From contig CAWGAV010000034.1 of the NCBI GenBank assembly GCA_963820625.1, positions 95 to 64,094 of the forward strand: 64,000 bases of DNA. Direction: 5' to 3'. The position numbers and the translations under genes were made by a program. Source of the stretch: an uncultured delta proteobacterium (GTDB lineage Bacteria; Desulfobacterota; BSN033; UBA1163). How positions within the stretch are numbered: the first letter of the stretch is position 1; each line of letters begins with the position of its first letter. The notes beneath the pieces are model-generated. The model ran no database searches. It was not told the origin of the DNA and saw only the letters and a list, made by a program, of their open reading frames with translations. This document shows, one piece after another, positions 6,207 to 41,105 of the stretch.

Positions 6207-6237
6207 CTTCCATCCTGTGCCTGAATCCTTAAAGAGC

Positions 6238-7380: not shown

Positions 7381-7400
7381 TCCCTGGGCCTATCCCTTAT

Positions 7401-8888: not shown

Positions 8889-9074
8889 CTATCATTTAAA
8901 ATTGTATTTTTTGAGAGATTAAAGATGACTAAAATGGGGATAGATATTTATTTGTCCCCAAACTTTCAAGAGGTCTCCAAAAAAGCTTGAAATCTTTATC
9001 AGAGACCTCCGAGAGACCTGCATATTTTTAGATTTTTTCAGAGATCTCTTCAATGAGTCTTTCCCGGAGGAAAC

Positions 9075-10115
9075 ATGAAGGAGTTTATTGATCTGAGAAG
9101 CGATACGGTCACCCGACCCACTCCTGCCATGAGAAAAGCGATGGCAGAAGCAGAGGTGGGCGACGATGTCTTTGGAGAAGACCCGACCGTGAATGCCCTG
9201 CAGGAAAAGGTGGCCAAAATCCTTGGAAAAGAAGCTGCCCTCTTTGTCCCCTCAGGGACAATGGCCAATCAGTTATCCATTAAATCCCACACTCAACCCG
9301 GCGATGAGGTGATCATCGAAGCGTCTTCTCATCCCTATAATTTTGAGGGGGGAGCTGGAGCTGCCCTTTCAGGTATCCAATTTCAGTGCCTCAAAGGTGT
9401 ACGAGGGATTCTCGACGCCTATCAGATTGAAGACGCTATCAGACCTGCTGATCACCATTTTCCTGTCACAAGACTGGTCTGTCTTGAAAACACTCACAAC
9501 CGCGGGGGTGGATCTATCTACCCCCTTGAGAAAATGGCAGAAATCTATCGATTGATCAAATCAAAAGGTCTCCTACTCCATCTCGATGGAGCCAGGCTTT
9601 GGAACGCCTCTGTGGCCACAGGAATTAAACCCCATGAATACGCTCAATGGGCGGACTCCGTCTCGGTCTGTCTTTCCAAAGGATTGGGAGCTCCTATTGG
9701 CTCCCTGGTCGCAAGCTCTAAACCATTTATTGATTGCGTTCACCGTTTTCGGAAAATGTTTGGAGGTGGTATGCGACAGGTAGGAATCATTGCTGCTGCC
9801 GGAATTTATGCATTAGGCCATCACCTCGAACGTTTGAAGGAAGACCATCAGAATGCAAAGCGTCTGGCAGTGGGTTTGAAAGAATTTAAAGGAGTCTCCG
9901 TTGATCCTAAGCATGTAGAAACGAATATTATCATCTTTGATGTGGCCGATACGGGGATGACAGGTTCCCAAGTGGCCGAAGCAATGAAGAAGGAAGGAGT
10001 CCTCATCCACCCCTTTGGCAAGACCCAAATCCGCCTGGTCACCCATTTGGATGTAGACGCTGAGGACATTGAGAAAGCACTGAAAACTTTTGAAAAGGTA
10101 TTAGGTAGAAAATAA
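9075..10115 (+). CDS. ltaE: Low-specificity L-threonine aldolase
   Basis: 346-aa ORF with [11 protein letters not shown] at the N-terminus. The PLP-dependent aldolase layout includes the CLSKGLGAP lysine region. Confidence 0.88.
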
Positions 10116-10132
10116 ACCACTAAATATCAATT

Positions 10133-10318
10133 GTAGGGGAGTCCCTCTGTGGACTCCCAACCAGGCGGCCACGGAGGACCGCCTCTACTAACTTTTAAGA
10201 AGGTATTTCCTGGAAAATAATTCATAATCCCTCCCAACCTCCCTTTAAAAAAGGGAGGAGGAATAATTCCCCCTTTTCTAAAGCCTGCCTGCCGGCAGGC
10301 AGGGGAGACGGGGGGGGG
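10133..10318. repeat. Cluster of modular hairpin repeats (modules M1, M3, a CCCTTT hairpin, M2, then a G9 run)
   Basis: M1 is GTAGGGGAGTCCCTCTGTGGACTCCC (10133-10158). M3 is CCAGGCGGCCACGGAGGACCGCCTCTAC (10161-10188). Next come the hairpin CCTCCCTTTAAAAAAGGGAGG and M2, CCTGCCTGCCGGCAGGCAGG (10284-10303). A G9 run lies at 10310-10318. Confidence 0.8.
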
Positions 10319-10354
10319 ATTATCAATCTTAGTAGTTTTTAAAAGGAGAAAAAC

Positions 10355-10894
10355 ATGACTTGGAAGCTGGCTGTCGTTGCTGAACGATGTTCCGGATGCA
10401 AGATTTGCGAACTGGTCTGTTCCATTCACCGTTTCGGGGTGAACAACCCCAAGAAGAGTGCGATTCGGGTGATGGTGGTTTACCCTCACCCTATTATACG
10501 GATGCCCATTGTCTGCCGACAATGCAAGGTAGCCAAATGCATGGAGAACTGTCCTACCGGAGCCATCACAACAAAGGATGGTATCTATGATATTGACAGT
10601 GAAAAGTGCATCTCCTGTCAACAATGCGTGATCTCCTGTCCTTTTGGTGCTGTCTTTCTCCACGAGGAGATCGAAACACCTTTTAAATGTAATCTCTGTA
10701 ACGGGAATCCACGCTGTGTGGAGGCCTGCCCCAAAAATGCGCTTCTCTTCTTACCTGAGCATGTATTGGGTCAGGCTCAGAGGATGACCAGCGTTTTAAA
10801 ATATGTGCACATGAAAGAAGTGGAATATGTGGAAAAGGGAGAAAGGAAGGTTCTGAGATATGCCGACATCGAAAAGGGAAAAACGGAAGATTAA
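10355..10894 (+). CDS. 4Fe-4S poly-ferredoxin (electron-transfer partner of AOR)
   Basis: 179-aa ORF with several CxxCxxCxxxCP-type motifs (CSGCKICELVC, CRQCKVAKCMENCP, CISCQQCVISCP, CNLC..RCVEACP). It lies directly upstream of, and overlaps, the AOR gene. Confidence 0.85.
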   Translation: MTWKLAVVAERCSGCKICELVCSIHRFGVNNPKKSAIRVMVVYPHPIIRMPIVCRQCKVAKCMENCPTGAITTKDGIYDIDSEKCISCQQCVISCPFGAVFLHEEIETPFKCNLCNGNPRCVEACPKNALLFLPEHVLGQAQRMTSVLKYVHMKEVEYVEKGERKVLRYADIEKGKTED

Positions 10895-12723
10895 GGGCGG
10901 ATATTTCTGGAAGATTCTCTGGGTGGATCTTGATCGCGCCGAGGCAAAGCCGTTGGAATTTGACGAAGCATTTGCCTCTAAATATATTGGTGGAAGGGGA
11001 TTCGGAGCAAAACTGCTTTGGAATCATCTCCAGAAGGAACCGATCGATCCCCTCGGTTCAGGAAATCTTTTGGTGATCTCTCCTGGACCTCTGGCGGGTC
11101 TTTACCTTCCTGCATCTGGAAAAACATCCTTTGTCTCCATCTCTCCGGAAACAGGGATTTATGGCGATTCGAGCATGGGCGGCTCTTTTGGCGCAGAACT
11201 TCGACAGGCTGGTATAGATGCCCTCGCCATTACTGGAAAGGCCAGAACCCTCTCCTACCTCTGGATCGATAATGGAGAAGTAAAAATCATTCCCAATGAG
11301 AAATTGAAAGGAAAAGGAAGTCTGGAGAGCGAAGGGATGATTAAGGAGGATCTGAAGGATGAACATATTAAAGTAGCCACCATTGGTCCTGCAGGAGAGA
11401 ATCGAGTCCGATTTGCCTGTGTCACTTCGGATTGGGGAAGAAATTCTGGAAGGACTGGCATCGGGGCCGTCATGGGATCTAAAAATATCAAGGCCATCGC
11501 TGTCCGTGGTTCTAAAGATCTCCCTGTCTTCGATCTTCCAAGACTGCAAAAAGCTTCTGAGACCTCCTTTCAAAGTCTGAGGGAGAATAAGAATTTTACC
11601 TTCTGGCAGGAACAGGGCCTCATGTCCGTCATCGATTATGTCAATGAGGCAGGGGTGATGCCTACTTATAATTTCAGGGAAGGCGTCTTCGAGCATGCCA
11701 AGAAGGTCAATGGCTATGAAATGCTCTCAAAATATAAGATCGGTGATACCTCTTGCTTCGCTTGCCCCATGGCCTGTGGGAATGTCTGCTTGGTGAAAGA
11801 AGGAAAATATCGAGGGACGGTGGTGGAAGGACCGGAGTATGAAACGGCTTGTATGTTTGGCCCCAATATTGGAGTTCAAAACTTTGCTGCCATTCTCAAG
11901 GCCAATCAACTCTGTGATGAACTCGGAATCGACACGATCACGGCTGGAAATCTTATCGGCGTCCTGATGGAGGCACAGGAGACAGGACTTCTCTCTGAAA
12001 AGGATCTGGATGGTCTCAACTTTAAATGGGGAGATGAAGAGGTCATCTTAGAAACCGTCCATCGGATCGCCCATCGAAAAGGAATAGGGAATATTCTCGC
12101 TGAAGGCAGCTACGGGGTGATCAAACAGTGGCCTCAATTAAAACCTATCATCTCGCAGGTGAAAGGACTGGAACAATCTGCCTACGACGCACGGATTGCC
12201 ATCTCCATGGCATTGGGATATGCCACCTCGGATATTGGAGCCCATCATGCACGGGCGTGGACAATCGCCAAGGAGTTGGAGATGGGAATGGATTGGCCAC
12301 TGGAGAAGAAGGCGGATCTGGTGATCTATCACCAGACACTTCGGCCCCTGTTTGACATGTTGGGAGTCTGCCGGTTGCCCTGGATTGAACTGGGTTTTGA
12401 TGAACATCAGTATGCTGAATTCTATTCAGCGGTCACAGGCGTTGAGACGACATTTGAATGAACTTCTCCAACGTTCTATGGACCTCTATGATCTCACCCG
12501 GGCCATCAATATGAAATTTGGCATCTCTCGGAAAGATGATTATCCTCCTGAAAGGGTTTTCAATTTGCCGATGACCGAAGGACCCCATGCAGGAAAGATC
12601 TTGAAACGGGATGATTACGAGGCGATCCTCGATATCTATTACCAGAAAAGGAGTTGGACCAAAGACGGTCTGGTGGATGGAAAAAAAATAGGAAGTTTTA
12701 ACGATCCACTGATCACCCCATAA
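10860..12723 (+). pseudogene. Aldehyde:ferredoxin oxidoreductase (AOR family) with an apparent frameshift at about 12450
   Basis: ORF 10860..12461 carries the AOR N-terminal and core domains (WKILWVDLD.., GRGFGAKLLW, GPAGEN.VRFA). It stops at a TGA at 12459-12461 right after AVTGVETTFE. The expected C-terminus (NELLQRSMDLYDLTRAINMKFGISRKDDYPPER...) continues in the +1 frame as ORF 12352..12723. Confidence 0.85.
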
Positions 12724-12748
12724 CTTTGTGAATTGTACCGGGAGCCAC

Positions 12749-12825
12749 GTAGGGGAGCCCCTCTGTGCCTGCCTGCCGGTAGGCAGGGGCTCCCGAATCA
12801 GGCGGCCACTGAGAGCCGCCCCTGC
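12749..12825. repeat. Second copy of the modular hairpin set, in order M1-M2-M3
   Basis: GTAGGGGAGCCCCTCTGTG (12749-12767), CCTGCCTGCCGGTAGGCAGG (12768-12787) and CAGGCGGCCACTGAGAGCCGCCCCTGC (about 12798-12825). These are the same modules as at 10133-10303 in a different order. M2 is nested inside a GGGAGCCCCT/AGGGGCTCCC stem. Confidence 0.8.
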
Positions 12826-12838
12826 AAGCTAAAAAAAC

Positions 12839-13159
12839 ATGAACGAATTTATCGTTGTATTGATTACCTGTGGTTCTGAAGAGGAGGCAATGAAGATTGC
12901 CAATGCCTTGGTAGAGGAGCATCTGGCTGCCTGTGTCAACCTTGTCTCTCCAATCCGTTCTATCTATCGATGGAAGGGAAAGATCTGGGACGAAAAGGAG
13001 TGGCTGTTGATCATCAAGACACAAAAGCAAAGGTTTGAGGAGCTAGAGAAAAAAGTCAAATTCCTTCACTCCTATTCTGTCCCTGAAATCATCAGCCTCC
13101 CCATTGTGGAGGGGTCTTCATCCTATCTCAACTGGTTGGAAGAAATGACCAGAAAATAG
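12839..13159 (+). CDS. cutA: Divalent-cation tolerance protein CutA
   Basis: 106-aa ORF with the CutA1 signature AACVN..P..S.Y.W.G.I and C-terminal HSYSVPEI. Confidence 0.9.
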   Translation: MNEFIVVLITCGSEEEAMKIANALVEEHLAACVNLVSPIRSIYRWKGKIWDEKEWLLIIKTQKQRFEELEKKVKFLHSYSVPEIISLPIVEGSSSYLNWLEEMTRK

Positions 13160-13164
13160 AATGA

Positions 13165-13292
13165 CCAATGTCAAAGCTCAAATGCCAAATTAAATCTAAC
13201 TTTAAATGCCATTTTATTTTGATTTTAGAATTTGACATTAATTTGACATTTGCCTGCTTACTGCAGGCAAGAACTTAGGCATTTGGCATTTT
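13165..13292. repeat. Word-type inverted repeats (AATGTCAAA / AAATGCCAAAT words) around a GCCTGC palindrome
   Basis: AATGTCAAA (about 13167) pairs with TTTGACATT x2 (about 13231 and 13242). AAATGCCAAAT (about 13181) pairs with ATTTGGCATTT (about 13281). The core is TTGCCTGCTTACTGCAGGCAA (13250-13270). Confidence 0.7.
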
Positions 13293-13315
13293 AATAGATC
13301 AGGAGGAAATATTTT

Positions 13316-13798
13316 ATGCCGACCGTATTAATCTTATACCATTCTAAAAGCGGAAACACGGAGGAGATGGCAAAAGCGGTTGAAGAAGGTGTGAAATCCG
13401 AGGGCGTCAAGGTGGTCAGAAAAAAAGTGATTCGAGCCACTTTGAAAGACCTTCTCAATGCAGACGGAATCATCTTAGGTTCACCAACTTATTATGGCAC
13501 AATGGCCGCTGAGATAAAGTCCTTTCTTGATAGGAGCGTCCAAATTCACGGCAAGTTAGAGGGGAAAGTCGGGGCAGCCTTTTCATCCTGTGGCGGATTG
13601 GGAGGGGGCGCTGAAACCACAGTCCTCGATATGACGAAGGCCCTCCTCATCCATGGAATGATTATTCAGGGAGATCCCTGGGGCTCCCATTATGGAACGA
13701 TCTCCATTGGTAAACCCAACGTAGCTGCCAAGAAGGAATGTAAAAAGCTTGGGGAAAAAGTCGCCCGCCTGGTCAAGCAATTGAAGGCGGTTTCTTAA
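13316..13798 (+). CDS. Flavodoxin-fold NAD(P)H-dependent oxidoreductase (WrbA-like)
   Basis: 160-aa ORF with [16 protein letters not shown] and GSPTYYGTM motifs. Confidence 0.8.
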
Positions 13799-15239
13799 GA
13801 TAAAAGTTTGTGCTCTGCTCAAAAGTGTAGGCCACTCTTAAGAGCATTCCTTCATCGAAGTGCCTCCCCATGATCTGAAGGCCTATGGGGAGTCCTTCGT
13901 GGCTGAACCCGCAGGGGATGGAGACCGCAGGAATTCCTGCTAGGTTCACTGGAATGGTATGGATATCGGATAAGTACATCTGGAGGGGGTCTTCTGTCTT
14001 CTCACCAATTCGGAAGGCCGGTGTGGGTGCAGTCGGCGCCACAATGACATCAACCTTCTGGAAGGCCTCCTCAAAATCCTTTCTCATCAAGGTTCTTACC
14101 TGTGAAGCCTTTCGGTAGTAGGCTTCATAATATCCCGCAGATAAGACATACGTCCCCAGAATGATTCGTCGTTTTACTTCCTTTCCAAATCCCTTTGCAC
14201 GGGTCTGAGTGTACATCTCCATCAGATCCCGATACCCTTTCGAACGGAGACCGTACTTCACCCCATCATATCGAGCTAGATTAGAACTGGCCTCTGCTGT
14301 CGCAATGATGTAATAAACGGCCACTGCATATTCCGTATGGGGTAAAGAGATCCTCTGGATTTCTGCTCCCCACTTTCTAAAGGAATCGATCGCCTCTTTG
14401 ACGGATTTATCCACTTCCGGATCCATTCCCTCTACAAAATATTCTTCAGGGATCCCAATTCGAATCCCTTTAACATCCCTTTTAAGCGACTGCTTATAAT
14501 CTGGGACTTCCACATTGACAGAAGTTGAGTCATTGGGGTCATAACCGCTGATCGCATTCATCAGGATAGCACAGTCTTCTACATCTTTTGTGATCGGGCC
14601 GATCTGATCCAAAGAGGAGGCAAAAGCCACCAACCCATATCTGGATACTCTGCCATAAGTCGGTTTCAATCCGACCACTCCGCAACAGGCGGCTGGCTGT
14701 CGGATCGAGCCTCCTGTATCCGTGCCCAGAGCAGCCATACATTCACCAGCGGCCACCGCGGCTGCCGAACCACCGCTGGAGCCCCCTGGGATCCGTTGAA
14801 GGTCCCAGGGATTATGAGTGGTTTGAAATCCTGAGTTTTCTGTAGAGGACCCCATAGCAAACTCGTCCATGTTGAGCTTTCCCAAAAAAACAGCTTTCCT
14901 CTCTTTAAGTTTTTTAATCACTGTCCCGTCATAAAACGGAATATATCCTTCTAAAATCTTTGAGGCACAAGTGGTTCGAATTCCTTTCGTGCAAAGAATA
15001 TCTTTCAGCCCGATGGGGACTCCTGCAAGGTCTCCAATTTCTTCTCCTTTAGTTATTTTCTGGTCCACTTGACCGGCCTGACGGAAGGCCTCTTCTTCTG
15101 TCAATAAGAGATAGGCTTTAATCTTCCCCTCCATCTCATGAATCCGCCTGTAGAGGGCTTCTGTGGCCTCTCTGGAGGTGACCTCCTTCTTAACCAAAAG
15201 GTCATGTAGTTCGTGGATGGTCAATGAGTGTAATTCCAT
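13773..15239 (-). CDS. gatA: Glutamyl-tRNA(Gln) amidotransferase subunit A
   Basis: 488-aa ORF with the amidase signature [14 protein letters not shown] and the catalytic region [12 protein letters not shown]. Confidence 0.95.
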
Positions 15240-26241: not shown

Positions 26242-29200
26242 ATGCGCCGATTAAAGAAAATCCTCATTGGGTTAGTTTCATTCTTTGTATTATTTACCAT
26301 CGTCGGTTTTTTTGTATTACCACCTATTCTTAAATCCATATTGGTAAAAAAACTTTCTGAAAATCTTCATCGTGAGGTAACGATCAGTCAGATCAAGGTT
26401 AATCCTTACACCCTATCCATAACGGCGAGAGGCCTTTTGGTGAAAGACCGGGGTAGCTCAGAAACTTTCGTATCTTGTGAGGAAATCTATTTGAATTTCC
26501 AGAGTTTTTCAGCCCTTAGATTGGCCCTTATTCTTAGTGAAATCAGGTTAAAGGAACCCTTCATAAAAATTACTCTCAATCAAGACATGTCCTATAATTT
26601 TTCTGATTTGATTGAAAAGAAGGAAGCTAAACCCCCAGAGAAGGAAAAGTCGAAACCCTTAAGGTTTTCATTGAATAACATCAGAATAGAAAACGGGAGC
26701 ATAGATTTTTGGGATGGACCTAAACAGACAAAGCATACGGTCAGAGAACTGAATATCGCTGTTCCATTTTTATCCAATATCCTTTACTACATCGATACTG
26801 ACGTTCAACCCGTGTTTTCAGCAAAAATTAACGAGACTCCTTATACCCTTCAAGGAAAGATAAAACCGTATGCAGATTCCCTCGAAACCTCTTTTGACAT
26901 CAATATTAGCGATCTGGATATTCCCTATTACCTTGCTTATTTCCCCATCAAAATGAATTTAAAGATTGTCTCGGCATATCTTGATACACAGGCAAAGATT
27001 TCTTTTATTCAATCTAAGGGCAGGAAGCCTTCCCTCATAGTCACAGGAAATGTCTCCCTAAAAAAAATAGCCGTTGACGACCAACAGAATAAACCCTTAT
27101 TACGGCTTCCCCTGTTCGATATCTCCTTTGCTGAGTCAGAACTGCTTTCTAAAATCATTCATCTATCAAAAATCTCCATTCAATCGCCTGAATTGGAAAT
27201 ACGACGTGATGAAAAAGGAGCTCTCAATGTTCAATCCCTTTTACCAGAAAAGAAAGAGACGAAACCTACCCCTAAAAAAGAAGAGGACTCCGCACCCTTA
27301 TTTTTAGACATAGATGAGGTGCAACTGGCAGGTGGAAAAATCTCTTTCTCTGACTTTTCCAGAAGTAAACCCTTCAAGACGATCTTAGATCCGGTAGAAC
27401 TGAAGGTTGAACATTTCAGCAACGGCAAAGATAAGAAATCGGCCTATGCTCTGTCACTCAAAACGGAAGCCAAAGAAACCATCCAGCTTGGGGGTGAATT
27501 TTCCATGGAACCTCTTTGGGGAGAGGGAGCCTTGGAGCTCAAATCTGTCCCGTTAAAGAAATATGCACCCTATTATCGCGATAACGTCCTATTTGACATC
27601 GAGGATGGCCGCCTTGACCTATCAACCCGCTACAAATATGCAAAAGGAGAAAAGGAACCGGATGTCAATCTTTCAGGGATTTCCATTTCCATCAATGCCC
27701 TCCGTCTTAAAAAAGCTGAAGAAAATGAGGACTTCCTCAAAATCCCTAACTTTTTAATCAAAGAGACTGAACTCGATCTTACAAAAAAGGAACTTAAAAT
27801 TGGAGGATTCTCCATACAGAAAGGTGAACTTCTTATCAGGCGTTTAAAGAACGGGGATATGAATGTCCTTAAGCTGGTCGCCCCTCCGTCGGTTCCGAAA
27901 GAAACAGTTCCTAAGGAACGATCCGATGAAACCAAAAGCAAACCTCCTGAAAAACCATGGCTTGTATCACTGAAACAAGTGTCCGTTGATAATTATATGA
28001 TCCGAGTCGAAGACCGAACCCCTTCCCAACCCGTCACCATTGCTGCAGAAAACATGAAGTTAAGGGGAGAGAATATCTCGACAGCTAAAAATAGCAAGGG
28101 CAAACTCTCCCTTTCTCTTCTTTTAGATAAGAAAGGAACCATTTCCACAACGGGGATGATCGGCATTGATCCCCTTACCGCTGATTTAAAGATGGATTTG
28201 AAAGGCATTGAGATTGGCCCACTCCAATCCTACTTCACGGATAAAATAAAGATTACGGTAACAGAGGGCACCATTTCAACAGCGGGCAACTTTTCATTAG
28301 GGACTACCGACAAAAAAGAGCTGAAAGCCGCCTACAGAGGTGAAGCCTCTCTATCCAATTTCTCTTCGATCGACAAACTGAATGCGGAGGATTTCCTGAA
28401 ATGGGAATCTCTCTCTTTCAGTGGTCTCAACGTGGGGTACAACCCTCTCTTGATTGATATTAAAGGAATCTCACTTACCAATTTCTATTCTCGGGTGATC
28501 ATGAACCCTGGTGGAACTCTTAACCTTCAGGAGATCATTGAAAAGGGTGAGCTAAAGCAAGAAACCACCCAACCTCCTGTAACACAAGGAAAGACTCCCC
28601 CTCCGACTCAGGAGAAGGCAACCCCTTCGCAAAAAGAAAAAGAGTCTACAAAAGACATCAAAATTGGCACGGTCACCCTTCAGGGAGGAACAATTGACTT
28701 CTCAGACAGATCCGTTAAACCAGATTACTCAGCAAAACTGACTGAGATAGGTGGAAGAATCTCAGGGCTTTCCTCTGAAGAAACCACCATGGCAGATGTG
28801 GAACTCCGCGGGAAACTCGATGATTACGCCCCACTCGAAATCACGGGTAAAATCAATCCTCTGAAAGAGGACCTTTATGTAGACATAAAAGCCAGATTTA
28901 AGGATATGGAACTCAGTCCGACGACCCCCTATGCGGGGAAATACGTCGGATACACCGTCGAGAAAGGAAAACTCTCCTTTGACCTTAAATATCTCATCGT
29001 CAAGAAGAAACTTGAATCTCAGAATCAAATCTTCATGGATCAGCTCACCTTGGGAGAAAAAGTGGAAAGTCCTCATGCGACGAAGCTCCCTGTCAAGCTT
29101 GCCATTGCTCTTCTTAAGGATCGGAAGGGGGAAATCAAACTGGACATCCCTGTGACAGGGAGCCTGGATGACCCTAAATTCAGTGTTTGGGGAATCATCC

Positions 29201-33123: not shown

Positions 33124-33213
33124 AACTAATGTCAGTAAGTCATTGGGTCATTGAGTCATCAAGACACTATGATGCCATGACACTAAGGCGCAAAGACGAT
33201 TTGGAGAAAAACC

Positions 33214-34566
33214 ATGTGCGGTATCTTTGGTATCTACAATCATCTTGAAGCATCAAATCTCGCCTATTTAGGTCTCTATGCCCTTCAGCATCGTGGTCAG
33301 GAGAGTGCTGGAATTGTCTCATCAGACAATAGACAACTCCATCATTACCGACAGATGGGACTGGTCTCCGAAGTCTTCACTAAGGATATCCTGAAGAGAC
33401 TCTCTGGGAAAAGTGCTGTGGGTCATGTCCGATATTCCACGGCTGGATCAAGTGAGCTCAAGAATGCTCAGCCTTTTGTCGCGGATTACTACAAGGGAAA
33501 CCTGGCCATTGCCCACAACGGCAATCTAACCAATGCCTTTCTGATTAAAAGCGAACTCGAATTTAAGGGATCCCTTTTCCAATCGAACATGGATACCGAA
33601 GTGATCGTTCACCTCATCGCACGGTCTAAGGAGAAAAACTCCATTGAGCGGATAGTCCACGCCCTTAAACAGGTTGAAGGGGCCTACTCTTTGCTCATCC
33701 TGACGGAAAAGGAAATGGTTGCCGCGAGAGATCCTTTTGGCTTCAGACCCCTGGTGCTTGGCCAGCTTAAGGAGGCACCTGTGGTTGCCTCCGAGACCTG
33801 CGCTTTTGACCTCATCGGAGCCAAGTTTGTGAGGGAGATCGAACCAGGAGAAATTCTCCTCATTAATGAGGAAGGAATCAAATCTTTCAAGCCTTTTCCT
33901 CAGAAACAACATCATCAGTGCATCTTCGAGTTCATTTACTTCGCTCGGCCGGATAGTTTCCTTTTCAAAAGAAGTGTCTATGAGGTCAGAAAATCATTTG
34001 GAGTCCAACTCGCCAGGGAAGCGCCTGTGGATGTAGATATGATTGTCCCCATCCCGGATTCCGGATTCCCTGCCACGTTGGGCTATGCGGCTGAATCGAA
34101 AATCCCTCTGGAGCTTGGGATGATAAGAAATCATTATATAGGACGGACATTCATCGAGCCTGAGCAGCGAATCCGCCATTTCGGCGTCAAGATCAAACTG
34201 AATCCAGTAAAAGAATTGCTGAAAGATAAAAAGATTGTCACTGTGGATGATTCCATCGTTCGGGCGACCACCAGCCGAAAGATCAACAAGATGTTTCGAA
34301 ATGCCGGCGCCAAAGAGGTTCATGTCAGGATCAGCTCTCCACCGATCACCCATTCTTGTTTCTTCGGCATTGATACGCCAAAAAGATCTGAGTTGATTGC
34401 CTCCTCTCATAAATTAAAGGAGATTCAGAAATTTATTAATGCAAACTCTTTACATTATTTAAGTTTAGAGGGCTTGAAGAAATGCGTGAGGGAGGATGCC
34501 GAACATTTCTGTTACGCTTGTTTTACAGGGGATTACCCTATTCCGTTCCAGATGGATTTAGAGTAA
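33214..34566 (+). CDS. purF: Amidophosphoribosyltransferase
   Basis: 450-aa ORF with the MCGIFGI N-terminal nucleophile, the PRTase loop VTVDDSIVRATT and C-terminal Cys residues. Confidence 0.95.
   Translation: MCGIFGIYNHLEASNLAYLGLYALQHRGQESAGIVSSDNRQLHHYRQMGLVSEVFTKDILKRLSGKSAVGHVRYSTAGSSELKNAQPFVADYYKGNLAIAHNGNLTNAFLIKSELEFKGSLFQSNMDTEVIVHLIARSKEKNSIERIVHALKQVEGAYSLLILTEKEMVAARDPFGFRPLVLGQLKEAPVVASETCAFDLIGAKFVREIEPGEILLINEEGIKSFKPFPQKQHHQCIFEFIYFARPDSFLFKRSVYEVRKSFGVQLAREAPVDVDMIVPIPDSGFPATLGYAAESKIPLELGMIRNHYIGRTFIEPEQRIRHFGVKIKLNPVKELLKDKKIVTVDDSIVRATTSRKINKMFRNAGAKEVHVRISSPPITHSCFFGIDTPKRSELIASSHKLKEIQKFINANSLHYLSLEGLKKCVREDAEHFCYACFTGDYPIPFQMDLE
34544..34565. repeat. att-like direct repeat, left copy (the last codons of purF)
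   Basis: CGTTCCAGATGGATTTAGAGTA matches CGTTTCAGATGGATTTAGAGTA at 39137-39158 at 21 of 22 positions. Confidence 0.8.
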
Positions 34567-34734
34567 AATATTTCCTGTTAAATTCTGATCCCCCATGGAC
34601 TCCCGGATTCTCTGACCCTTAAAGATAAATCGATATACCAGTTCTCTCCTCTCTTGTAGACTGCCATTCAACTCGCCTCCCTTTTTGGCCATTGGCCGGT
34701 TAAGTTTAATTGGGTTCACCTCCTTCCATAACTT

Positions 34735-35127
34735 TTATTCTTCATCCTTAATAGATGCTATTCGTGCATACAGGTGTTTGACTTCTTCCGGTTTAATTCT
34801 TTCCCAAAAGAAAAAAGTTTGGATGTCTATCCTCATCTCGGCAACGGTTTCCTGTAAAGCCTTTGTGATGTCACCTCTTGAAGGTTTAACCATTATTGAA
34901 ACGGCATAATCCATCTTCTTGGCTACATTTTTGCTGCCATACAGCCATAATTTACTTAGTGCTTTGTTTAGCCCTTCTTCGTCTTTGCTTGCTGGGTCAT
35001 ACGCAGCCTTCAAGATGATTGGAAGTATTTCTTCATACACTCTTTGTTTCCCTTCTAAAAATGTCTTGGCACGCCCGAAAACATATCCAACGAATGCCAT
35101 TAATAGCGCTACCAGAATTGCAACCAT
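34735..35127 (-). CDS. Hypothetical protein with an N-terminal TM helix
   Basis: 130-aa ORF (MVAILVALLMAFVGYVFG...). The RBS GGAAAGGAG lies upstream. I recognise no family. Confidence 0.55.
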   Translation of the reverse strand: MVAILVALLMAFVGYVFGRAKTFLEGKQRVYEEILPIILKAAYDPASKDEEGLNKALSKLWLYGSKNVAKKMDYAVSIMVKPSRGDITKALQETVAEMRIDIQTFFFWERIKPEEVKHLYARIASIKDEE

Positions 35128-35193
35128 AAAAACTCCTTTCCTCAGAAACTAAAAACGCCCTAACCCCAGGGTGTTGGTGAGAAGCGTGGCTCT

Positions 35194-35343
35194 TTATTTC
35201 TTCTCTTTCTCTTCATGCTTCTCCAACCATTCATCCAATGCTCTCCGAATCAGCTCCGCCATCGAATAGCCTGTTTTCTTTGACAACCCCTTGAACTTCT
35301 TAGATTGAATCTCAGTTAGATAGATATTGGTCCTCTTCATCAT
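35194..35343 (-). CDS. Ribbon-helix-helix (CopG/antitoxin-like) small protein; not in the supplied ORF track (<60 aa)
   Basis: Hand translation gives MMKRTNIYLTEIQSKKFKGLSKKTGYSMAELIRRALDEWLEKHEEKEKK. The beta-strand (TNIYLTE) plus two helices is the classic RHH pattern. A hairpin plus T-run follows at about 35135-35165. Confidence 0.6.
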   Translation of the reverse strand: MMKRTNIYLTEIQSKKFKGLSKKTGYSMAELIRRALDEWLEKHEEKEKK

Positions 35344-35465
35344 TTTACACTCCTAAATTCGGAATACACCATATATACACCATCATCATTTCTTTGTCAA
35401 GCTTTTTCTCCCGTGGATAGAGAATCCGGGGGACCGTGGTGGTCTGATTTTAGGGTTTGACGCTA

Positions 35466-35494
35466 TTGACTTGCCTTTACAATTTATATATTAT
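35466..35494 (+). promoter_or_regulatory. Candidate sigma70 promoter
   Basis: TTGACT (35466-35471), a 17-nt spacer, then TATTAT (35489-35494). It is about 160 nt upstream of the 35652 ORF. Confidence 0.35.
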
Positions 35495-35651
35495 CCCCTT
35501 GAAATCGCACCTTTCAAAAATCCATTAACCTTTGACTCATAGGGGGTGTGGTCTTGAGTTATGAAGCCTCTTTCTTGGGCAACAGGGATCGATTTTTCTA
35601 TATGGGCTAATTTTCCCCGAGGAAATAAATTACAATTAAGGAACTAAATAA

Positions 35652-36140
35652 ATGCTTTATCTAAAAGTATTAGCGGTTCTTTTAACATCAGCAATTGGTT
35701 TTATGCAGGCGCTCGATAAGAAAAAACACCTCAAAATTTTCCTAATTGTCGGTGTTTTATTTTTATTTGGAACGACCGTGACATCGGAATTCGTAACAAT
35801 CCGAGAAAAAAAGAACCAGGATGGAAAATTAGATGAGCTTTTGACTACAAATAAGGAGCTTAAAGGCCAAGTGACAGGATTGGAAAAAAAACTCGATCCC
35901 TTCATAAAAACTGCTGAAAAACGTTATCCGGATTTAACAAAGGAAGAGGCTCTCAAAAAACTTCAGACTGACATCGAAAAAATTGAGGTTCGTGCTAAAA
36001 TCCTTGAAGAGAAAGTTACCGACCAAAAGGAACAACTGTCAAATTATTTCACGTATGCTGAGGTCGCAACATGGAATGTCCATGGAGATAAATCTGTCGG
36101 TTCGGGTGTTGCGGTAAGTAGTCCGGTTTCTGGTGGATGA
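35652..36140 (+). CDS. Hypothetical membrane protein (2 TM helices plus a coiled coil)
   Basis: 162-aa ORF with two N-terminal hydrophobic helices followed by heptad-like K/E-rich sequence. Its stop overlaps the next start (ATGA). Confidence 0.55.
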   Translation: MLYLKVLAVLLTSAIGFMQALDKKKHLKIFLIVGVLFLFGTTVTSEFVTIREKKNQDGKLDELLTTNKELKGQVTGLEKKLDPFIKTAEKRYPDLTKEEALKKLQTDIEKIEVRAKILEEKVTDQKEQLSNYFTYAEVATWNVHGDKSVGSGVAVSSPVSGG

Positions 36141-36409
36141 AAAATTACATTGAAGATAAAGACGGTCAGCTTAAATGGAAGTGTGATCCTTCTGCCATCG
36201 CTTACTACAAGAGCAAAATTAAAGAACAACCTTATTATCCTTTTCCATACTATTTTCTTGCCATTTGTCTCAAACGAATGGGAGATGACAGCTGGCAGAA
36301 ATACGCAAAAGATGGAATACAGATTCTTGAAAAAACGATCACAATCCCTGGTCATGATCCTGGACATGACGACGCTCTTAAAAGGATGAAAGATCTTTTT
36401 AAAAATTAA
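36137..36409 (+). CDS. Hypothetical small protein, translationally coupled to the upstream ORF
   Basis: 90-aa ORF with an ATGA overlap at 36137-36140. It has a single TPR-like helix pair (YYFLAICLKRMGDDSWQKYAKDGIQILEK). Confidence 0.5.
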   Translation: MKNYIEDKDGQLKWKCDPSAIAYYKSKIKEQPYYPFPYYFLAICLKRMGDDSWQKYAKDGIQILEKTITIPGHDPGHDDALKRMKDLFKN

Positions 36410-36432
36410 ATAATGTCCCCGGTGTAGTCTTC

Positions 36433-36495
36433 AAAAAAAAACAGTATTCAATTTTCAAAGAGCGTGCAGGGTCAGAAATGGCTCTGCTTTTTTTA
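36433..36495. repeat. About 63-nt direct repeat, copy 1
   Basis: A-run..CAGTATTCAATTTTCAAAGAGC..TCAGAAATGGCTCTGCTTTTTT. The last 22 nt are identical to 38447-38468. Confidence 0.75.
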
Positions 36496-36746
36496 TCCCA
36501 TCAAGAATAAAGCCTTCTGAGACCAAAATCCCTGTGGTCTCCCGGAAGACCCCTTCCTCTTAATTTTTAGATCTTGCTTCACAATCCAACATTTCAAATC
36601 GAAATCGCTTATGGTCTATCAAGCTGATGATGAGTCAATAAATATTTATTCTTTGAGACAAAAAAGGTCACAATTCCCCCTTTATTAAAATTTCAATTTT
36701 CAAACAAATCTTTAAAAATCAATGGGTTTAAGCCTCCAATCCCTTT

Positions 36747-36761
36747 TGGCATTGAAATTGC
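36747..36761 (+). promoter_or_regulatory. Sigma54 (-24/-12) promoter
   Basis: TGGCAT-TGAAA-TTGC has the exact GG-N10-GC spacing of the TGGCAC-N5-TTGC consensus. It is about 35 nt upstream of the riboswitch-like leader. Confidence 0.6.
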
Positions 36762-36794
36762 TCTTAAAACAATAGGAGAAAACTAAAACCAACA

Positions 36795-36885
36795 TTGCCG
36801 ATAAAGCCAAACCACGAGTAATCGTGGGACGGAAAGCCACGGGTCCCGAGTTTTCGGGATAGCCGGGTTGCCGAAGCAAAAGGAA
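36795..36885 (+). promoter_or_regulatory. GEMM-I (c-di-GMP class I) riboswitch-like aptamer
   Basis: GCCAAACC-ACGA-GUAA-UCGU-GGGACGGAAAGCCACGGG...AGCCGGGUUGCCGA matches the remembered Vc2 core GGCAAACC-(GNRA hairpin)-GGGACGCAAAGCC.CCGG...GCGGGGUUACCGA. A PilZ gene lies downstream. Confidence 0.75.
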
Positions 36886-36893
36886 TTTTGCGG

Positions 36894-36927
36894 GGCCCGT
36901 GGTCTATATAACCATGGGCCTTTTTTT
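36894..36927 (+). terminator. Intrinsic terminator forming the riboswitch expression platform
   Basis: GGCCCGTGG (36894-36902) pairs with CCATGGGCC (36912-36920), followed by T7. GGGGCCCGTGG (36892-36902) can instead pair with CCACGGGTCCC (36837-36847) in the aptamer. Confidence 0.75.
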
Positions 36928-36945
36928 GGAGTTTCGAGAGGAATT

Positions 36946-37722
36946 ATGAGGTCAACCACAACAAGATGTATTTTTTATCGAGATTCGAAAGGTATTGGCA
37001 TGGGTAAGGGCCTCGGTTACTGCGATTTCGATGGATGCCAATCAGTTTGTGATGGAGATATCCAGTTCTGTGAAAAGCCAGATGTTATGAGGAAATATCT
37101 TTTGGATCAAAAGGGTAAGGAAGAAGGGGGTGGAATAAAAGAGGAATTACTAAATTTGAATAAATTAGAAAGCTTAAATATAAAATCTTCTAATTACCAA
37201 GTTCTTGTAGTGGATGATGAGGAACCAATGAGAAAGCTAATTGTGACTTTATTGTCCCAAAAGGGACATCAATGCGTAACCGTAAGTAATGGTCTTGAGG
37301 CGTTAGATAAAATTAGGGAAAACAAATTTGATGCCGTAATTGCTGACATTGTCATGCCCGAAATGGATGGGGTTGCCCTTACAAAAGAACTCTCTAAACA
37401 TTATCAAAGCCTTCCCGTGATGATAATGACAGGGCATACTGATGAATATTCAGCAGAAACTGCCATTGCTTCAGGTGCACGAGAATTTATTAATAAGCCA
37501 TTCTCAATTGAAGAATTTATCATACGATTTCATAAAATGATGCATGAACATGAAATCCTCTGCCAGATAGAGGCTAAAACTAAAGACATAGTTTTCAATT
37601 TACAAAGAGATTCAAATGAGAAGATCGAAAAACTCAAAGGGGAGATAGAGAATCTAAAAAACAAATTAACCTCTCTTTATGAATTAGGAGGAGCAGTTGG
37701 TTCTAAGAATCATCTCAGGTAG
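36946..37722 (+). CDS. Response-regulator receiver protein with a Cys-rich N-terminal domain and a C-terminal coiled coil
   Basis: The start was moved to ATG 36946 (RBS GAGAGGA); the listed 36868 start lies inside the riboswitch and terminator. The REC motifs are VLVVDDEE, AVIADIVMPEMDG, MIMTGH and INKPF. The N-terminus has 5 Cys (C-x17-C-x4-C-x3-C-x6-CEKPD). Confidence 0.8.
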   Translation: MRSTTTRCIFYRDSKGIGMGKGLGYCDFDGCQSVCDGDIQFCEKPDVMRKYLLDQKGKEEGGGIKEELLNLNKLESLNIKSSNYQVLVVDDEEPMRKLIVTLLSQKGHQCVTVSNGLEALDKIRENKFDAVIADIVMPEMDGVALTKELSKHYQSLPVMIMTGHTDEYSAETAIASGAREFINKPFSIEEFIIRFHKMMHEHEILCQIEAKTKDIVFNLQRDSNEKIEKLKGEIENLKNKLTSLYELGGAVGSKNHLR

Positions 37723-37738
37723 TGGTTAGGAGGATTCG

Positions 37739-38107
37739 ATGGAGAATTTAAATTATAATAAAGACAGAAGAAGATTTCCTCGGGTATTCATGGACTTACC
37801 CTTGGAATATCAAATTATGGATACCCCCAATGCTCATGGAGGACTGGTTGTTAATGTGAGTGAGAATGGCCTTCTAATTCATTCTTTAAAAGACATGCCG
37901 ATAGGAGCAAAACTAAATATTGCAGTTTTGTTCTCCAAGGCATTCGAATTGACCAACTTTGAAGTCTCAGCCGAAATTGTTTGGAAAGACATCCATTTGG
38001 ATGGAGATTGGGAGGGATATGAATATGGATTAAAATATATTCAGATCGGTAAGGATGACCATTGGAAGCTAAGACAACTTCTTAACCATGGAATCATGAA
38101 GGGGTGA
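37739..38107 (+). CDS. PilZ domain protein (c-di-GMP receptor)
   Basis: 122-aa ORF with RRRFPR (RxxxR) and NVSENG ((D/N)xSxxG) motifs at canonical spacing. Confidence 0.85.
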   Translation: MENLNYNKDRRRFPRVFMDLPLEYQIMDTPNAHGGLVVNVSENGLLIHSLKDMPIGAKLNIAVLFSKAFELTNFEVSAEIVWKDIHLDGDWEGYEYGLKYIQIGKDDHWKLRQLLNHGIMKG

Positions 38108-38187
38108 CCCGGTTTCATTTTTAAGGAGAGTCGCTTGAGCACATCAGTAAGATTCCAAATTAAACTCACTAGCAAAAAGGGAAGGCG

Positions 38188-38340
38188 ATGCGAATCAAAA
38201 TATTGAAAATGACATTGTTAGGAGTTGTTATTATCGCTTCCATTACTTTGATCCTTAAGCACCAGATAATTCAAGATTATTTCTTTACTCTGGGATGTCG
38301 TATCGTTGATATAATTAACTTGGTGATAAAAAACAGATAG
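38188..38340 (+). CDS. Possible 50-aa single-TM mini-protein; not in the supplied ORF track
   Basis: Hand translation gives MRIKILKMTLLGVVIIASITLILKHQIIQDYFFTLGCRIVDIINLVIKNR. The RBS AAGGGAAGG lies 3 nt upstream. Confidence 0.35.
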   Translation: MRIKILKMTLLGVVIIASITLILKHQIIQDYFFTLGCRIVDIINLVIKNR

Positions 38341-38404
38341 TAAAGCTGGGGAAAAAGGTTTTGAACGTTGGCTGATCTAGATAGGAGGGGGGTGGAAAGA
38401 AGTT

Positions 38405-38469
38405 TAAAAAATATCTGTATTCAGTTTTCAAAGAGCAAAGGTAGGATCAGAAATGGCTCTGCTTTTTTA
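38405..38469. repeat. About 63-nt direct repeat, copy 2
   Basis: A-run..CTGTATTCAGTTTTCAAAGAGC..TCAGAAATGGCTCTGCTTTTTT. See 36433-36495. Confidence 0.75.
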
Positions 38470-38760
38470 TTTTTCAGCAGTGGGAAACCTTTATCCATCT
38501 TCACCCTCAACGCAGCACAACATGAAAACCTGTCAACACGAAGTTCAAATTGCATTTTTGTGAAAATGTCCATATGCAAACCAGGCATATCAAGATCTTT
38601 CCTTTCATTGACGAGAAATCAATATATGTCTACATTTTTCTACAAGTTAGGACTTTAAGAATTGGAAGGGTGGTTGCCTCTAAATTCCTGCACTGAACAT
38701 TGAGAGTCTGGAATTTCCCTTACGTTAGGAGAGTCAGATAGGCATTTTTGACATGTATTT

Positions 38761-39150
38761 CTAATGGATTGACTTTCTTATTATTTTTACCCTCCTACGC
38801 AGAAAGCCACGGATCTTTAGACCGTGGATGAATACGAGGAGGTTACCCTTCGAAGCTCCTAAGGAGCGTAGTGGAGTATGCTTCGGAGGGTTCCGCCCGA
38901 CGAAGCATGTGGAGAAGCCATGGGCTTTAGCCCGTGGGGCTCCACTTTTCAGATTATCCATAAAAACAATATATCGCATCAGTTTTCTGAATAACGAAGA
39001 AAACTCCCTCTTATTCGGTATCATCAATTTTAACAATTTATCGTGTTTAATGAGGTAATCTACTAAGCAATAAAAATCCCCATCTCCAGTCACAATTAAA
39101 GCTTTGTTGTAATTCGGATATTTCTTGCTGTTTTTTCGTTTCAGATGGAT
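38761..39150 (-). pseudogene. 5'-truncated NYN/LabA-like fragment whose ORF tail reads through a hairpin-repeat cluster
   Basis: The frame is open from 39150 with no start codon: ..KKYPNYNKALIVTGDGDFYCLVDYLIKHDKLLKLMIP.. This is the SGDGDF-type C-terminal half of NYN domains. The N-terminal half is absent and the frame is closed by the TAA inside the 39137-39158 repeat. Confidence 0.55.
38807..38937. repeat. Cluster of four short hairpins
   Basis: CCACGGATCTTTAGACCGTGG (38807-38827), GCTCCTAAGGAGC, ATGCTTCG..CGAAGCAT and CCATGGGCTTTAGCCCGTGG (38918-38937). Confidence 0.7.
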
Positions 39151-39158
39151 TTAGAGTA
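39137..39158. repeat. att-like direct repeat, right copy
   Basis: CGTTTCAGATGGATTTAGAGTA matches purF 34544-34565 at 21 of 22 positions. Confidence 0.8.
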
Positions 39159-39169
39159 GGTTCAGTTTT

Positions 39170-39445
39170 TTAGGAGGGTTTTGGCTTAGATTTCTTTTTC
39201 GCTTTGCCCGCTGTAATTTTTTTCATTTCCGCCATACCCGCGATCAATTTTTGCCATTCAGATTTGATCTGCTCTCTTTCCTTTTCAACTTTTAAAATTT
39301 GGCGATAGACAGAAAGCACCCGCAAGGCAATCTTAGCTTTCTCGTCATTCACCTGTTTCCCATCACAATAAGCCCTGAGATACTTTTCCGCTGTGTCCAC
39401 CAACGGTTTAAAGAGGTCTGAATCCTTTTTCTTCATTTTCTCCAT
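39170..39445 (-). CDS. Hypothetical small protein with a Lys-rich tail
   Basis: 91-aa ORF. No motif recognised. Confidence 0.5.
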   Translation of the reverse strand: MEKMKKKDSDLFKPLVDTAEKYLRAYCDGKQVNDEKAKIALRVLSVYRQILKVEKEREQIKSEWQKLIAGMAEMKKITAGKAKKKSKPKPS

Positions 39446-39776
39446 CCTTTATTCTTTTTACTTTACTTCATGCGGAAAGTTTAACAAGAAATGTAAGCAG
39501 ATGCAATTAATAATATTCTTTATACTCCCAAGCCCTCTGACTGAATTTTTCAGTCAAGTCTGATACAGGAGGATAAGGCCCGAGGAGAGGCGACAGAAGT
39601 GATGAGACTCAAATCAAAGTTCTCTGTTGAACATTTTGTCAGGGCGATTTCCCAGAAGAATCAAACTTAAATAGATCGTGTAACTTACGGCCTGCGCAAG
39701 GTGGGCCTGAAGTGAGGAGGTCCTTCGGATCAGCTGGAAAATCTGTCATACACCACTTACTCCAAAAGACTTTTCT

Positions 39777-41105
39777 TTACTTCTTCGGATATCTGGGATG
39801 GGTCACTCCTTCGGTAGGTTTTCCAAAAGAAGCTGTATCCAGATTACGTAGAGGATGATTTTTCTCGTACATCGGCTTGAGTCTTTTCGCTCTTACTCCT
39901 TCTGGGTAGAACTTTGCAATAGCTGCCTGACTCCGGTCGAGAGATACATTTTCAATGACATAGTCAACCCTACCCAGACCATTTTCCACTCCTCCATAGA
40001 CCTGTTGCTCAATATCTTTACCTTTGATGAGGTTTAACTTTTTCGAACCCGGAGCAAGGGCATTAAATTCTTCTGCTTCAGAGTTAATCAGTCCTGGTGC
40101 TTCATTCATCAGGTCAATGCAAGCCTTATCCACAGCCACCGGGTCCAATGAGGCCAATACCCCAATACCATTCACAAAAGGTGTATCCGTCCATCCATAG
40201 CAGTCACAGGCAGGAGTGATATCCATAGCATAGTTAATGAAGAACATCCCCCCTGGTTCCTTCGTCATCATCGTGGCCAAAGCTGAGTCAGCAATTCGCC
40301 TACCCAGAGCTGGTAAATAATCGAACCGCTGAATACCATTAACGCCTGCCATATTCACACATAAGTTAGCACAAGCAAAGCAATAGACGCATGAATCCAA
40401 ATCAATCTCTAATCCTTTTTCTGTCACCTTGATTGACCCTTCCGGACAACATTCCTCACAGGTTTGCCACCACTCGCACTTTTGGCCAGGACAGAGCTCG
40501 GCTTTAATGACCGGCTTATCACCAGCCAGAGCACCGTGAAGGTTCATTTTGCCCCGTTTGCTCGCACAGCCGACACCTATATTCTTGATCGCTGCTCCAT
40601 AACCTCCAGCAGGGTGGCCTTTGAAATGAGCTACTGATAACAGAGCATCTGCATCCGCAATGGCCCGAGCAACAAACTGCTTGTTTAAATAGTTCCCTCG
40701 GCCTTTGAGATCAACAATCACATCGTCTGTCCCCAGCCAACCATCCGCAATGATAATCGGACAGCCCATCGAGGCATGGTTAAAACCATTGCGGTTAGCA
40801 GTCTCCAAATGGTCCAAAGCAAGGGTTCTACTGATCCATGGGTGGTAAGGCATTGTGGTCGTGTCAGTAACAAACGGCTTGCATCCTCGTTCTTTCAGGG
40901 CATCCACAAATGTCCGAACAATGATTGGTCTTAGGTAACCGACATTGTAGGCCTCCCCCATGTGAGTTTTAACAGCCACGATGTCACCGGGCTTAAGGTT
41001 GTCCATCCAACCCGAATGCTCAAGGATCTGGAGACCTTTAATGGCAGTGGATTCTAAAAACCTTCTTGACCGGGCATCCATAAACCAAACTGTTGTTTTG
41101 CTCAT
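39777..41105 (-). CDS. DUF362-like protein with an inserted 2x[4Fe-4S]-type Cys-rich segment
   Basis: 442-aa ORF. KTHMGE, FVTDTTT, AHFKGH and NIGVGCASKRGK are typical of DUF362 as I recall. The Cys clusters are CPGQKCEWWQTCEECCP and CVYCFACANLC. Confidence 0.7.
   Translation of the reverse strand: MSKTTVWFMDARSRRFLESTAIKGLQILEHSGWMDNLKPGDIVAVKTHMGEAYNVGYLRPIIVRTFVDALKERGCKPFVTDTTTMPYHPWISRTLALDHLETANRNGFNHASMGCPIIIADGWLGTDDVIVDLKGRGNYLNKQFVARAIADADALLSVAHFKGHPAGGYGAAIKNIGVGCASKRGKMNLHGALAGDKPVIKAELCPGQKCEWWQTCEECCPEGSIKVTEKGLEIDLDSCVYCFACANLCVNMAGVNGIQRFDYLPALGRRIADSALATMMTKEPGGMFFINYAMDITPACDCYGWTDTPFVNGIGVLASLDPVAVDKACIDLMNEAPGLINSEAEEFNALAPGSKKLNLIKGKDIEQQVYGGVENGLGRVDYVIENVSLDRSQAAIAKFYPEGVRAKRLKPMYEKNHPLRNLDTASFGKPTEGVTHPRYPKK

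Follow-up and report, generated by a model that had tools for sequence, protein, structure and literature searches.

The prophages e14 and 21 of E. coli are tyrosine-integrase elements which insert at the 3′ end of icd and supply a replacement 3′ end, leaving the encoded protein intact; the original end, now displaced, persists as a repeat where the far side of the element meets the chromosome, and e14 itself is a defective remnant. The islet described here follows the amidophosphoribosyltransferase gene purF in a 64,000-nucleotide stretch of contig CAWGAV010000034.1 (hereafter the window, always meaning the whole stretch) from an uncultured member of the Thermodesulfobacteriota. It is of an ordinary and well-documented kind, works as these two prophages or SGI1 (at trmE) do, and calls for no new mechanism. 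We propose, with a probability of roughly 0.85, that the interval 34566-39133 of the window is what remains, now fixed, of an integrative element inserted by a tyrosine integrase at the 3′ end of purF. Its differences from e14 and 21 lie in the target gene, in the length of the duplication (only ~22-25 nt), in the integrase, which is present as a stub, and in the uncultured thermodesulfobacterial host.

Genomic islands of the SGI1 type (at the 3′ end of trmE) and of the GIsul2 type (at guaA) have, according to published descriptions, a tyrosine integrase that targets the last bases of a conserved protein gene, short imperfect direct repeats at their ends, and sites that are empty or occupied in relatives (PMC8409611, PMC9376610). 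Such islands carry an active integrase and an excisionase and are mobilised by conjugative plasmids, whereas the islet in the window is without mobilisation functions; and, unlike SGI1 and GIsul2, the integrase-bearing relatives of the islet (L081 and L167, in which the gene is split by a frameshift) look phage-like or satellite-like, with capsid or primase-polymerase genes. The present state of the islet resembles that of a cryptic prophage or of an “anchored” island: as in the decayed islands and cryptic prophages at tRNA hotspots, there is an integrase pseudogene beside the left attachment site (attL), with varied cargo, atypical composition, tandem accretion (in L102) and differential decay among relatives. 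Unlike those hotspots, the site is the 3′ end of a protein gene, and a tRNA search found no tRNA gene in the window. A literature search for purF as an attachment (att) site found nothing specific.

A displaced purF end and its empty sites

The purF gene (33214-34566, + strand) encodes a 450-aa protein which is full length by its match to the TIGR01134 equivalog (533 bits against a cut-off of 350, with profile positions 1-432 matched; Pfam GATase_7/6), and the final 7 codons of the gene come from the left copy of a direct repeat. The original prediction, made from the sequence alone, was that the last 22 nt of purF recur 4.6 kb downstream in the same orientation with a 21/22 match, and this was borne out at the same positions: the left copy, CGTTCCAGATGGATTTAGAGTA, lies at 34544-34565 and the right copy, CGTTTCAGATGGATTTAGAGTA, at 39137-39158 of the same strand. 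A scan of the 64-kb window at up to 3 mismatches found these two copies only and 0 of 100 shuffles yielded two matches, in agreement with the earlier view that the repeat is beyond chance. It can be extended to 25 nt with 23/25 identity (34541-34565, attL, which is followed by TAA, and 39134-39158, the right attachment site attR, both on the + strand), and includes a perfectly identical 17-nt block, CAGATGGATTTAGAGTA (34549-34565 and 39142-39158). The left copy codes for the terminal PurF residues F-Q-M-D-L-E and the TA of the stop codon; the right copy keeps the same reading frame and has a TAG stop. Two differences distinguish attL from attR, C versus T at 34548/39141 and TAA versus TAG at the stop, and these can be original differences between the attachment sites of the element (attP) and of the chromosome (attB), outside the region of exchange, which is consistent with the presence of TAG in most empty sites and of TAA in about two-thirds of occupied sites.

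The relatives with which the window was compared are 160 related loci (cited by L-numbers) that a scan with purF retrieved from GTDB species genomes and from JGI contigs of metagenomes; most belong to uncultured Thermodesulfobacteriota of the Syntrophaceae type living in peat, soil and sediment. Occupancy was counted over the 120 loci with a purF at least 78% identical. An empty site had been predicted to consist of purF and a small convergent gene standing tail to tail, and this arrangement is found at 37 of the 120 (L090, L091 and 35 others). A further 23, the window included, are occupied by 0.55-8.8 kb of varied cargo between the two genes, most of them having lost the right repeat copy altogether; at the remaining loci the contig ends before the small gene or the gene order is another. 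The small gene (39170-39445, − strand, 91 aa) is a conserved chromosomal gene of the right flank, outside the element, whose homologues follow purF in 60 loci, and with its ancestral 11-nt spacer it takes up 39159-39445. This spacer (39159-39169) separates the right repeat copy from the stop codon of the convergent gene, so that the predicted distance of 12 nt was essentially right.

Positions 33203-34565 of the window correspond to 9479-10841 of L090 (93.3% identity) and positions 39139-40278 to 10822-11982 (92.9%), the two alignments overlapping on a single 20-nt repeat copy in L090. The right repeat and 39159-39169 are colinear with the empty sites of L090, L091, L034 and L009, and the spacer of the window, GTTCAGTTTT, resembles those of L090 (GTTCGGTTTC) and L091 (GTTCAGTTTCC). 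The L090 junction reads ...TTCCAGATGGATTTAGAGTAG GTTCGGTTTC TTA..., and the right copy in the window reads ...TTTCAGATGGATTTAGAGTAG GTTCAGTTTT TTA...; the right copy is therefore the displaced ancestral end of purF, with its TAG stop. Immediately to the left of attR lies a distal arm derived from attP (39094-39133, + strand), with motifs common to the same arm of two other elements inserted at purF: within the ~100 nt left of the right repeat, TATTTCTTGC has a 10/10 match in L102, and CTTGC and TTAA motifs are common to L042. Because the window, L102 and L042 share these motifs, the right end of the islet is a genuine element end. (The purF of L034, an empty site, gave two overlapping tblastn segments at 10001-11354, residues 1-445 and 401-450, in different frames, which points to a frameshift close to the 3′ end or to a fault in the assembly there.)

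The interval between the repeats had also been described as richer in AT than its flanks. The suggested composition check was run, and in both measures the islet is the most extreme part of the window: the G+C content of 34566-39136 is 38.6%, as against 45.0% for the rest of the window, which is below all 503 other windows of equal length (their minimum being 42.1%), and its tetranucleotide distance is 0.267, as against a maximum of 0.205 elsewhere. The comparison with relatives, through their empty sites, supports the proposal of site-specific integration into the purF 3′ end.

The integrase stub and its family

Adjoining the left repeat is a tyrosine integrase pseudogene, a stub of ~100 nt on the − strand (34567-34667) in which N-terminal codons 1-27 (34596-34667) are fused to the extreme 3′ end of the gene (34567-34595). 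Its N-terminal part reads, across two frames, MAVYKRGENWYID, a frameshift, and FIFKGQRIRESMG. This matches the N-terminus of a tyrosine integrase family with Int_N, Phage_int_SAM and Phage_integrase domains (precomputed Pfam matches), for example protein P0004 (MAIYKRGKNWYIDFTFKGQRIRESIGPSRKG...), which in a tblastn search against the window hit 34667-34596 with E=2e-4; the DNA of the stub is homologous to integrase remnants in L005, L001 and L089. At the other end, the 25 nt that adjoin purF at its stop, aatatttcctgttaaattc, correspond to the last bases of the gene in copies that are better preserved (the L100 counterpart, aaaatttacctcttaaattcc, codes for ...LEFKR-stop), and the 3′-terminal motif tttcctgttaaattc matches tttacctcttaaattcc, which codes for the terminal ...LEFKR of the L100 and L005 integrases. 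As the stub consists of the N-terminus and the extreme 3′ end, ~1 kb has been lost from the gene by internal deletion. The earlier statement that no recombinase is present thus needs amending, for although no gene is intact a remnant is there, and, because this integrase remnant adjoins the left repeat, an integrase-independent mechanism is not needed; of the three mechanisms that had been offered (decay, mobilisation in trans, or no integrase at all), the evidence favours a decayed element.

Remnants of the same integrase family stand just after purF, on the same strand, at 14 other loci, and range from small stubs to fragments of at least 110 aa. N-terminal stubs are found at L001/L087/L088, L089, L102 and L118, remnants with internal deletions at L005 and L113, and C-terminal pieces at L028, L042, L093, L100, L101 and L139 (protein P0047 is likewise a C-terminal piece adjacent to purF). 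None of these 15 loci, counting the window, shows an intact purF-type integrase, L100 (Ga0326726_10075084) running off the end of its contig. Two homology searches for such an enzyme gave, among the nearest relatives, nothing but fragments, and in the contexts examined the integrase lay at other targets (a tetratricopeptide repeat (TPR) gene, hisS) or was again truncated and adjacent to purF. A scan of viral contigs found nothing for the integrase N-terminus and, for the att core, four unrelated phage matches with no purF or integrase context.

Insertions with the same architecture recur at the same site. In L042 an 18/22 copy of the repeat lies 5.45 kb downstream of purF, and the sequence to the right of this copy is what directly follows purF in L002, the single-copy comparator for that locus; in L102 the sequence CATTCCAGGTGGATTTAGAGTAG lies 4.95 kb downstream of purF, and the two alignments of L102 with its comparator L010 overlap by 34 nt on the att region. 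The L102 locus (1693-9000) begins with a 4.95-kb element, containing an integrase stub, an Adhesin_E-like gene and a ribbon-helix-helix (RHH) gene, which is followed by the att copy; to the right of this come the remnant of an older integrase tail, a gene of 213 aa that L010 has as well, two further Adhesin_E-like genes and another RHH gene. Given the older integrase tail and the second Adhesin_E/RHH set, L102 represents tandem accretion of two elements. Adhesin_E-like and RHH genes recur beside purF in many relatives. The purF 3′ end is a recurrent integration hotspot.

A positive control for the integrase family is provided by L081, a phage-like element of 10.2 kb whose genes include those for a major capsid protein and an HTH_17 protein, with the order RHH, small genes, Adhesin_E-like gene, integrase. 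Its integrase is a related member of the family, split by a frameshift, with its 3′ end abutting the target gene, and a stretch of 23 nt from the 3′ end of that gene, a convergent TPR gene, is repeated (22/23) at the ends of the element. The window has the matching order of RHH gene, membrane gene, integrase stub and att site. The RHH regulator of the window (Arc/CopG-like, 49 aa, 35194-35343, − strand; Pfam RHH_3, E=5e-8; PHROG Arc-like repressor) is 58% identical to that of the L081 element (E=4e-16) and has homologues in the same position in L003, L006, L007, L038, L042, L087, L102, L106, L112, L113, L119 and L126; it is a conserved gene of this element family. Next to it, the predicted 130-aa membrane protein (34735-35127, − strand) had no matches in Pfam, PHROG and PADLOC scans, and its gene occupies the slot of the Adhesin_E-like gene in related elements, as compared with L081, L087, L102 and L113.

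In L167 a further family integrase adjoins hisS at its 3′ end, and the element it belongs to also carries a primase-polymerase gene. Only the relatives L081, L082 and L167 have capsid, terminase-like or primase genes; Pfam and PHROG searches found no capsid, replication or packaging gene of a phage satellite or phage-inducible chromosomal island (PICI) among the islet genes of the window. By gene content alone, L081 (~10 kb, integrase at one end, AlpA/HTH_17 gene, major capsid gene) bears a likeness to PICIs and capsid-forming satellites, as does L167 with its primase-polymerase, and the window islet keeps none of these genes.

Integrases of the family are also split into two open reading frames (ORFs) in L167 (5363-6599), L168 (1-785), L169 (7261-8465) and L081 (10001-11052). 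The two frames part exactly between HTG and MRKGE, where the first catalytic arginine is, both in L167/L168 (two assemblies made from short reads), owing to one extra G, and in L169, owing to one missing base. L169 and L081 are from an assembly that may carry homopolymer errors, and the nearest database relatives of both integrase halves are all fragments of at most 199 aa. L081 also has a second motif, GTCACAAAATCC(C/A)CC, ~100 nt from the core at both ends (881-1041 and 10977-11107), one copy of it inside the last codons of the integrase gene; these are possible arm-type integrase binding sites.

The direct repeat, the empty site and the atypical composition that mark an island or prophage remnant of a tyrosine recombinase are thus all present at purF, and the integrase next to the att site is represented in the window by a frameshifted, internally deleted stub only, with larger remnants at the same place in relatives. 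We suggest that its source was a family of small elements, phage-like or satellite-like, in uncultured Syntrophaceae-type Thermodesulfobacteriota, and we infer that a circular attP underwent recombination, through the tyrosine integrase of the element, with an attB consisting of the final 20-25 nt of purF; the crossover probably took place inside the 17-nt block. The element would have brought its own purF tail, purF still ending in ...PFQMDLE-stop, and the resident tail (TAG stop included) would have moved 4.6 kb to the right, along with the 11-nt spacer before the small gene, to become attR. The integrase gene would have lain at the attL end, reading toward the att site as in phage lambda, and its later internal loss of ~1 kb and gain of a frameshift would have left the islet unable to move autonomously. 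What survives is the RHH regulator of the family, the membrane gene in the usual accessory slot, and a cargo of two unknown ORFs, an operon encoding receiver (REC) and PilZ proteins under the control of a cyclic di-GMP (c-di-GMP) riboswitch, a gene fragment and a hairpin-rich segment.

Several points weigh against this reconstruction. The purF-targeting integrase was found intact nowhere, with the possible exception of L100, so that the case for integrase-mediated insertion at purF is built on remnants, together with relatives that have other targets. The stub match is short (27 residues, E=2e-4 in a small database) and needs a frameshift, and the stub call partly rests on DNA similarity to better-preserved remnants. 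In a galE neighbour-joining tree the window groups with the occupied loci L087/L088 and L093 and with the empty L090, which is thereby nested in an otherwise occupied clade; flanking identities are mosaic among relatives and, because of this mosaicism, the tree could not tell a single old insertion, followed by precise loss or by allelic replacement, from several separate ones. Finally, the cargo is wholly unlike that in the islets of the closest relatives (L087, L093) and the gene fragment by attR is truncated, so that the middle of the islet may not be original.

Alternative histories of the islet

The last of these points leads to the alternative that survives best, which refines rather than replaces the decayed-element reading. 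It holds that the ends alone are derived from integrase activity (~0.8 kb on the left with the stub, membrane gene and RHH gene, and ~0.1 kb on the right), and that the middle, comprising the 162-aa and 90-aa ORFs, the riboswitch-REC-PilZ cassette and the fragment, came by later homologous recombination or secondary insertions, as is typical of hotspots. Nearly every relative, the closest ones included, has different cargo between purF and the small gene; the riboswitch cassette has a terminator-containing repeat of 65 nt on either side; and the L028 hotspot contains a homologous cassette that runs the other way, a further one being found outside the hotspot in L025. From the differing cargo, the flanking repeats of the cassette and its inversion in L028, it follows that some of the interior may have been swapped since the element integrated, and the tandem accretion in L102 and recombination at the locus point the same way. 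The latter is suggested by the body of purF (33296-34530), which has ~99% DNA identity to L001/L087/L088, whose flanking genes reach 80-91% only, the identity falling again at the att site; this tract is either the product of recent recombination ending at the hotspot, or the mark of a chimeric metagenome assembly. Set against a composite origin are the uniformly low G+C content of all 4.6 kb and the fact that the window has no internal att copy and no second integrase remnant. The cargo may thus have arrived with the element or have been swapped in later, and we consider a composite islet a tentative possibility, at clearly less than even odds.

Alternatively, the islet might be non-autonomous and still mobile, moved in trans by a full-length family integrase encoded elsewhere that acts on the retained att sites and attP arms. 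The 21/22 identity of attL and attR beside an integrase that is a stub would fit with this, although their mismatches are possibly original attP/attB differences and so uninformative on age. N-terminal stubs of like design occur in several lineages (the window, L089, L001/L087, L102 and L118), two of which keep a clear attR; yet the integrase deletions as a whole form a continuum of unrelated patterns (C-terminal only, N-terminal only, internal), as independent decay predicts, and at most occupied sites attR has been lost altogether. The distal arm motifs are conserved across independent insertions, and full-length integrase relatives exist in databases at 48-60% identity, but there is no full-length family integrase within the 64-kb window. 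The empty L090 among occupied relatives would need precise loss, though nested empty sites can be explained by allelic replacement through homologous recombination, which requires no integrase. Because the decay patterns vary and attR is often lost, we favour simple decay and regard mobilisation in trans as unlikely. The broader notion, that stub-bearing purF islets may be a non-autonomous lineage which has discarded its integrase and is moved by co-resident full-length integrases, we think equally improbable; if true, it would explain why none of more than 15 purF-adjacent integrase genes is shown intact while repeat-bounded insertions and nested empty sites exist.

It is very improbable that the repeat is a chance match or a transposon target-site duplication, or that the structure is an artefact of metagenome assembly, even though the window is probably from a metagenome-assembled genome and the 99% purF identity to the contigs of another species could mean a chimera: the shuffles speak against chance, an imperfect duplication of 22-25 nt is far longer than those made by transposons or insertion sequences (a repeat scan found no terminal inverted repeats joining the islet ends, and Pfam no transposase domain), the same architecture is found in the independent assemblies of L042 and L102, and at the right junction the sequence is, base for base, that of the empty site in relatives.

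Islet contents and the wider meaning of the site

The gene list given in the original prediction stood for the membrane protein, the RHH protein, the overlapping unknowns and the riboswitch-REC-PilZ cassette, and was weak in the NYN assignment of the last gene (13.8 bits). The overlapping pair (35652-36409, + strand) consists of a 162-aa membrane/coiled-coil protein (35652-36140) and a 90-aa protein (36137-36409), for which Pfam, PHROG and PADLOC scans gave sub-threshold family matches only; across the islet proteins, PADLOC matches to defence functions were likewise sub-threshold (coiled-coil or receiver).

Downstream of this pair lies the cassette, bracketed by two copies of a nested, terminator-containing direct repeat of ~65 nt on the + strand, the first at 36430-36495 (stem-loop 36466-36487, then T7) and the second, found by repeat scan, at 38403-38470. 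Window positions 36433-36558 (128 nt) are 90.6% identical to 14353-14480 of L087, in an otherwise different islet, and a conserved non-coding module with the intrinsic terminator GCAGGGTCAGAAATGGCTCTGC and T7 is seen at 36430-36558 and 38403-38470 of the window, 14353-14480 of L087 and 17219-17258 of L003. Between the repeats, a c-di-GMP-I-GGC riboswitch (36797-36922, + strand) comprises an aptamer (36797-36876; Rfam RF03167, 70.9 bits against a gathering score of 59, a full-length model match) and an intrinsic terminator (36892-36922), and precedes the cargo operon (36946-38340, + strand) of a protein with an N-terminal Cys-rich domain and a receiver (36946-37722; Response_reg, E=1e-29), a PilZ protein (37739-38107; E=5e-11, both Pfam) and a 50-aa membrane ORF (38188-38340). 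The cassette in the L028 hotspot (12107-14791, opposite strand) has a homologous riboswitch, a free-standing Cys-rich ORF and a REC protein; that in L025 (14601-15214) is a riboswitch-PilZ pair.

Towards the right end is a hairpin-rich, GC-rich segment of four stem-loops (38790-38945; minimum free energy −78.2 kcal/mol, z=−5.7 on the + strand and −5.2 on the − strand), two of whose loops are alike (CCAYGG..CUUUAG..CCGUGG); it had no Rfam match at E up to 1 and no second copy in the window or the 166 loci compared. It is followed by a pseudogene, possibly the C-terminal fragment of an NYN-domain gene (38950-39093, − strand, ...ALIVTGDGDFYCLVDYL...), which matches positions 93-134 of the 145 in PF01936 with E=0.087 and 13.8 bits, below the cut-off of 24.2 bits. 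A 24-nt inverted repeat of 83% identity (34590-34613/35419-35442) brackets the integrase stub, membrane gene and RHH gene; the same scan lists many pairs of like quality, and it is probably a chance feature. Upstream of the locus, ~650 nt of the window (27355-28011) are missing from the alignments of L003, L005 and L090 and present in L001, L002 and L093, which is another presence/absence polymorphism.

For annotation, the lesson is that a search for gene stubs can resolve islets that seem to be without an integrase. The att core, CAGATGGATTTAGAGTA, is now defined, and the site is tied to a family of tyrosine integrases that target the 3′ ends of protein genes (purF and a TPR gene; an integrase of the family also adjoins hisS, a possible further target). 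The purF loci provide a series dated by decay, from large integrase remnants to bare islets, and the history proposed here accounts for the presence of a c-di-GMP-riboswitch-controlled REC-PilZ cassette beside purF. The purF 3′ end is a recurrent hotspot of integration in Thermodesulfobacteriota that are uncultured and widespread in peat, soil and sediment.

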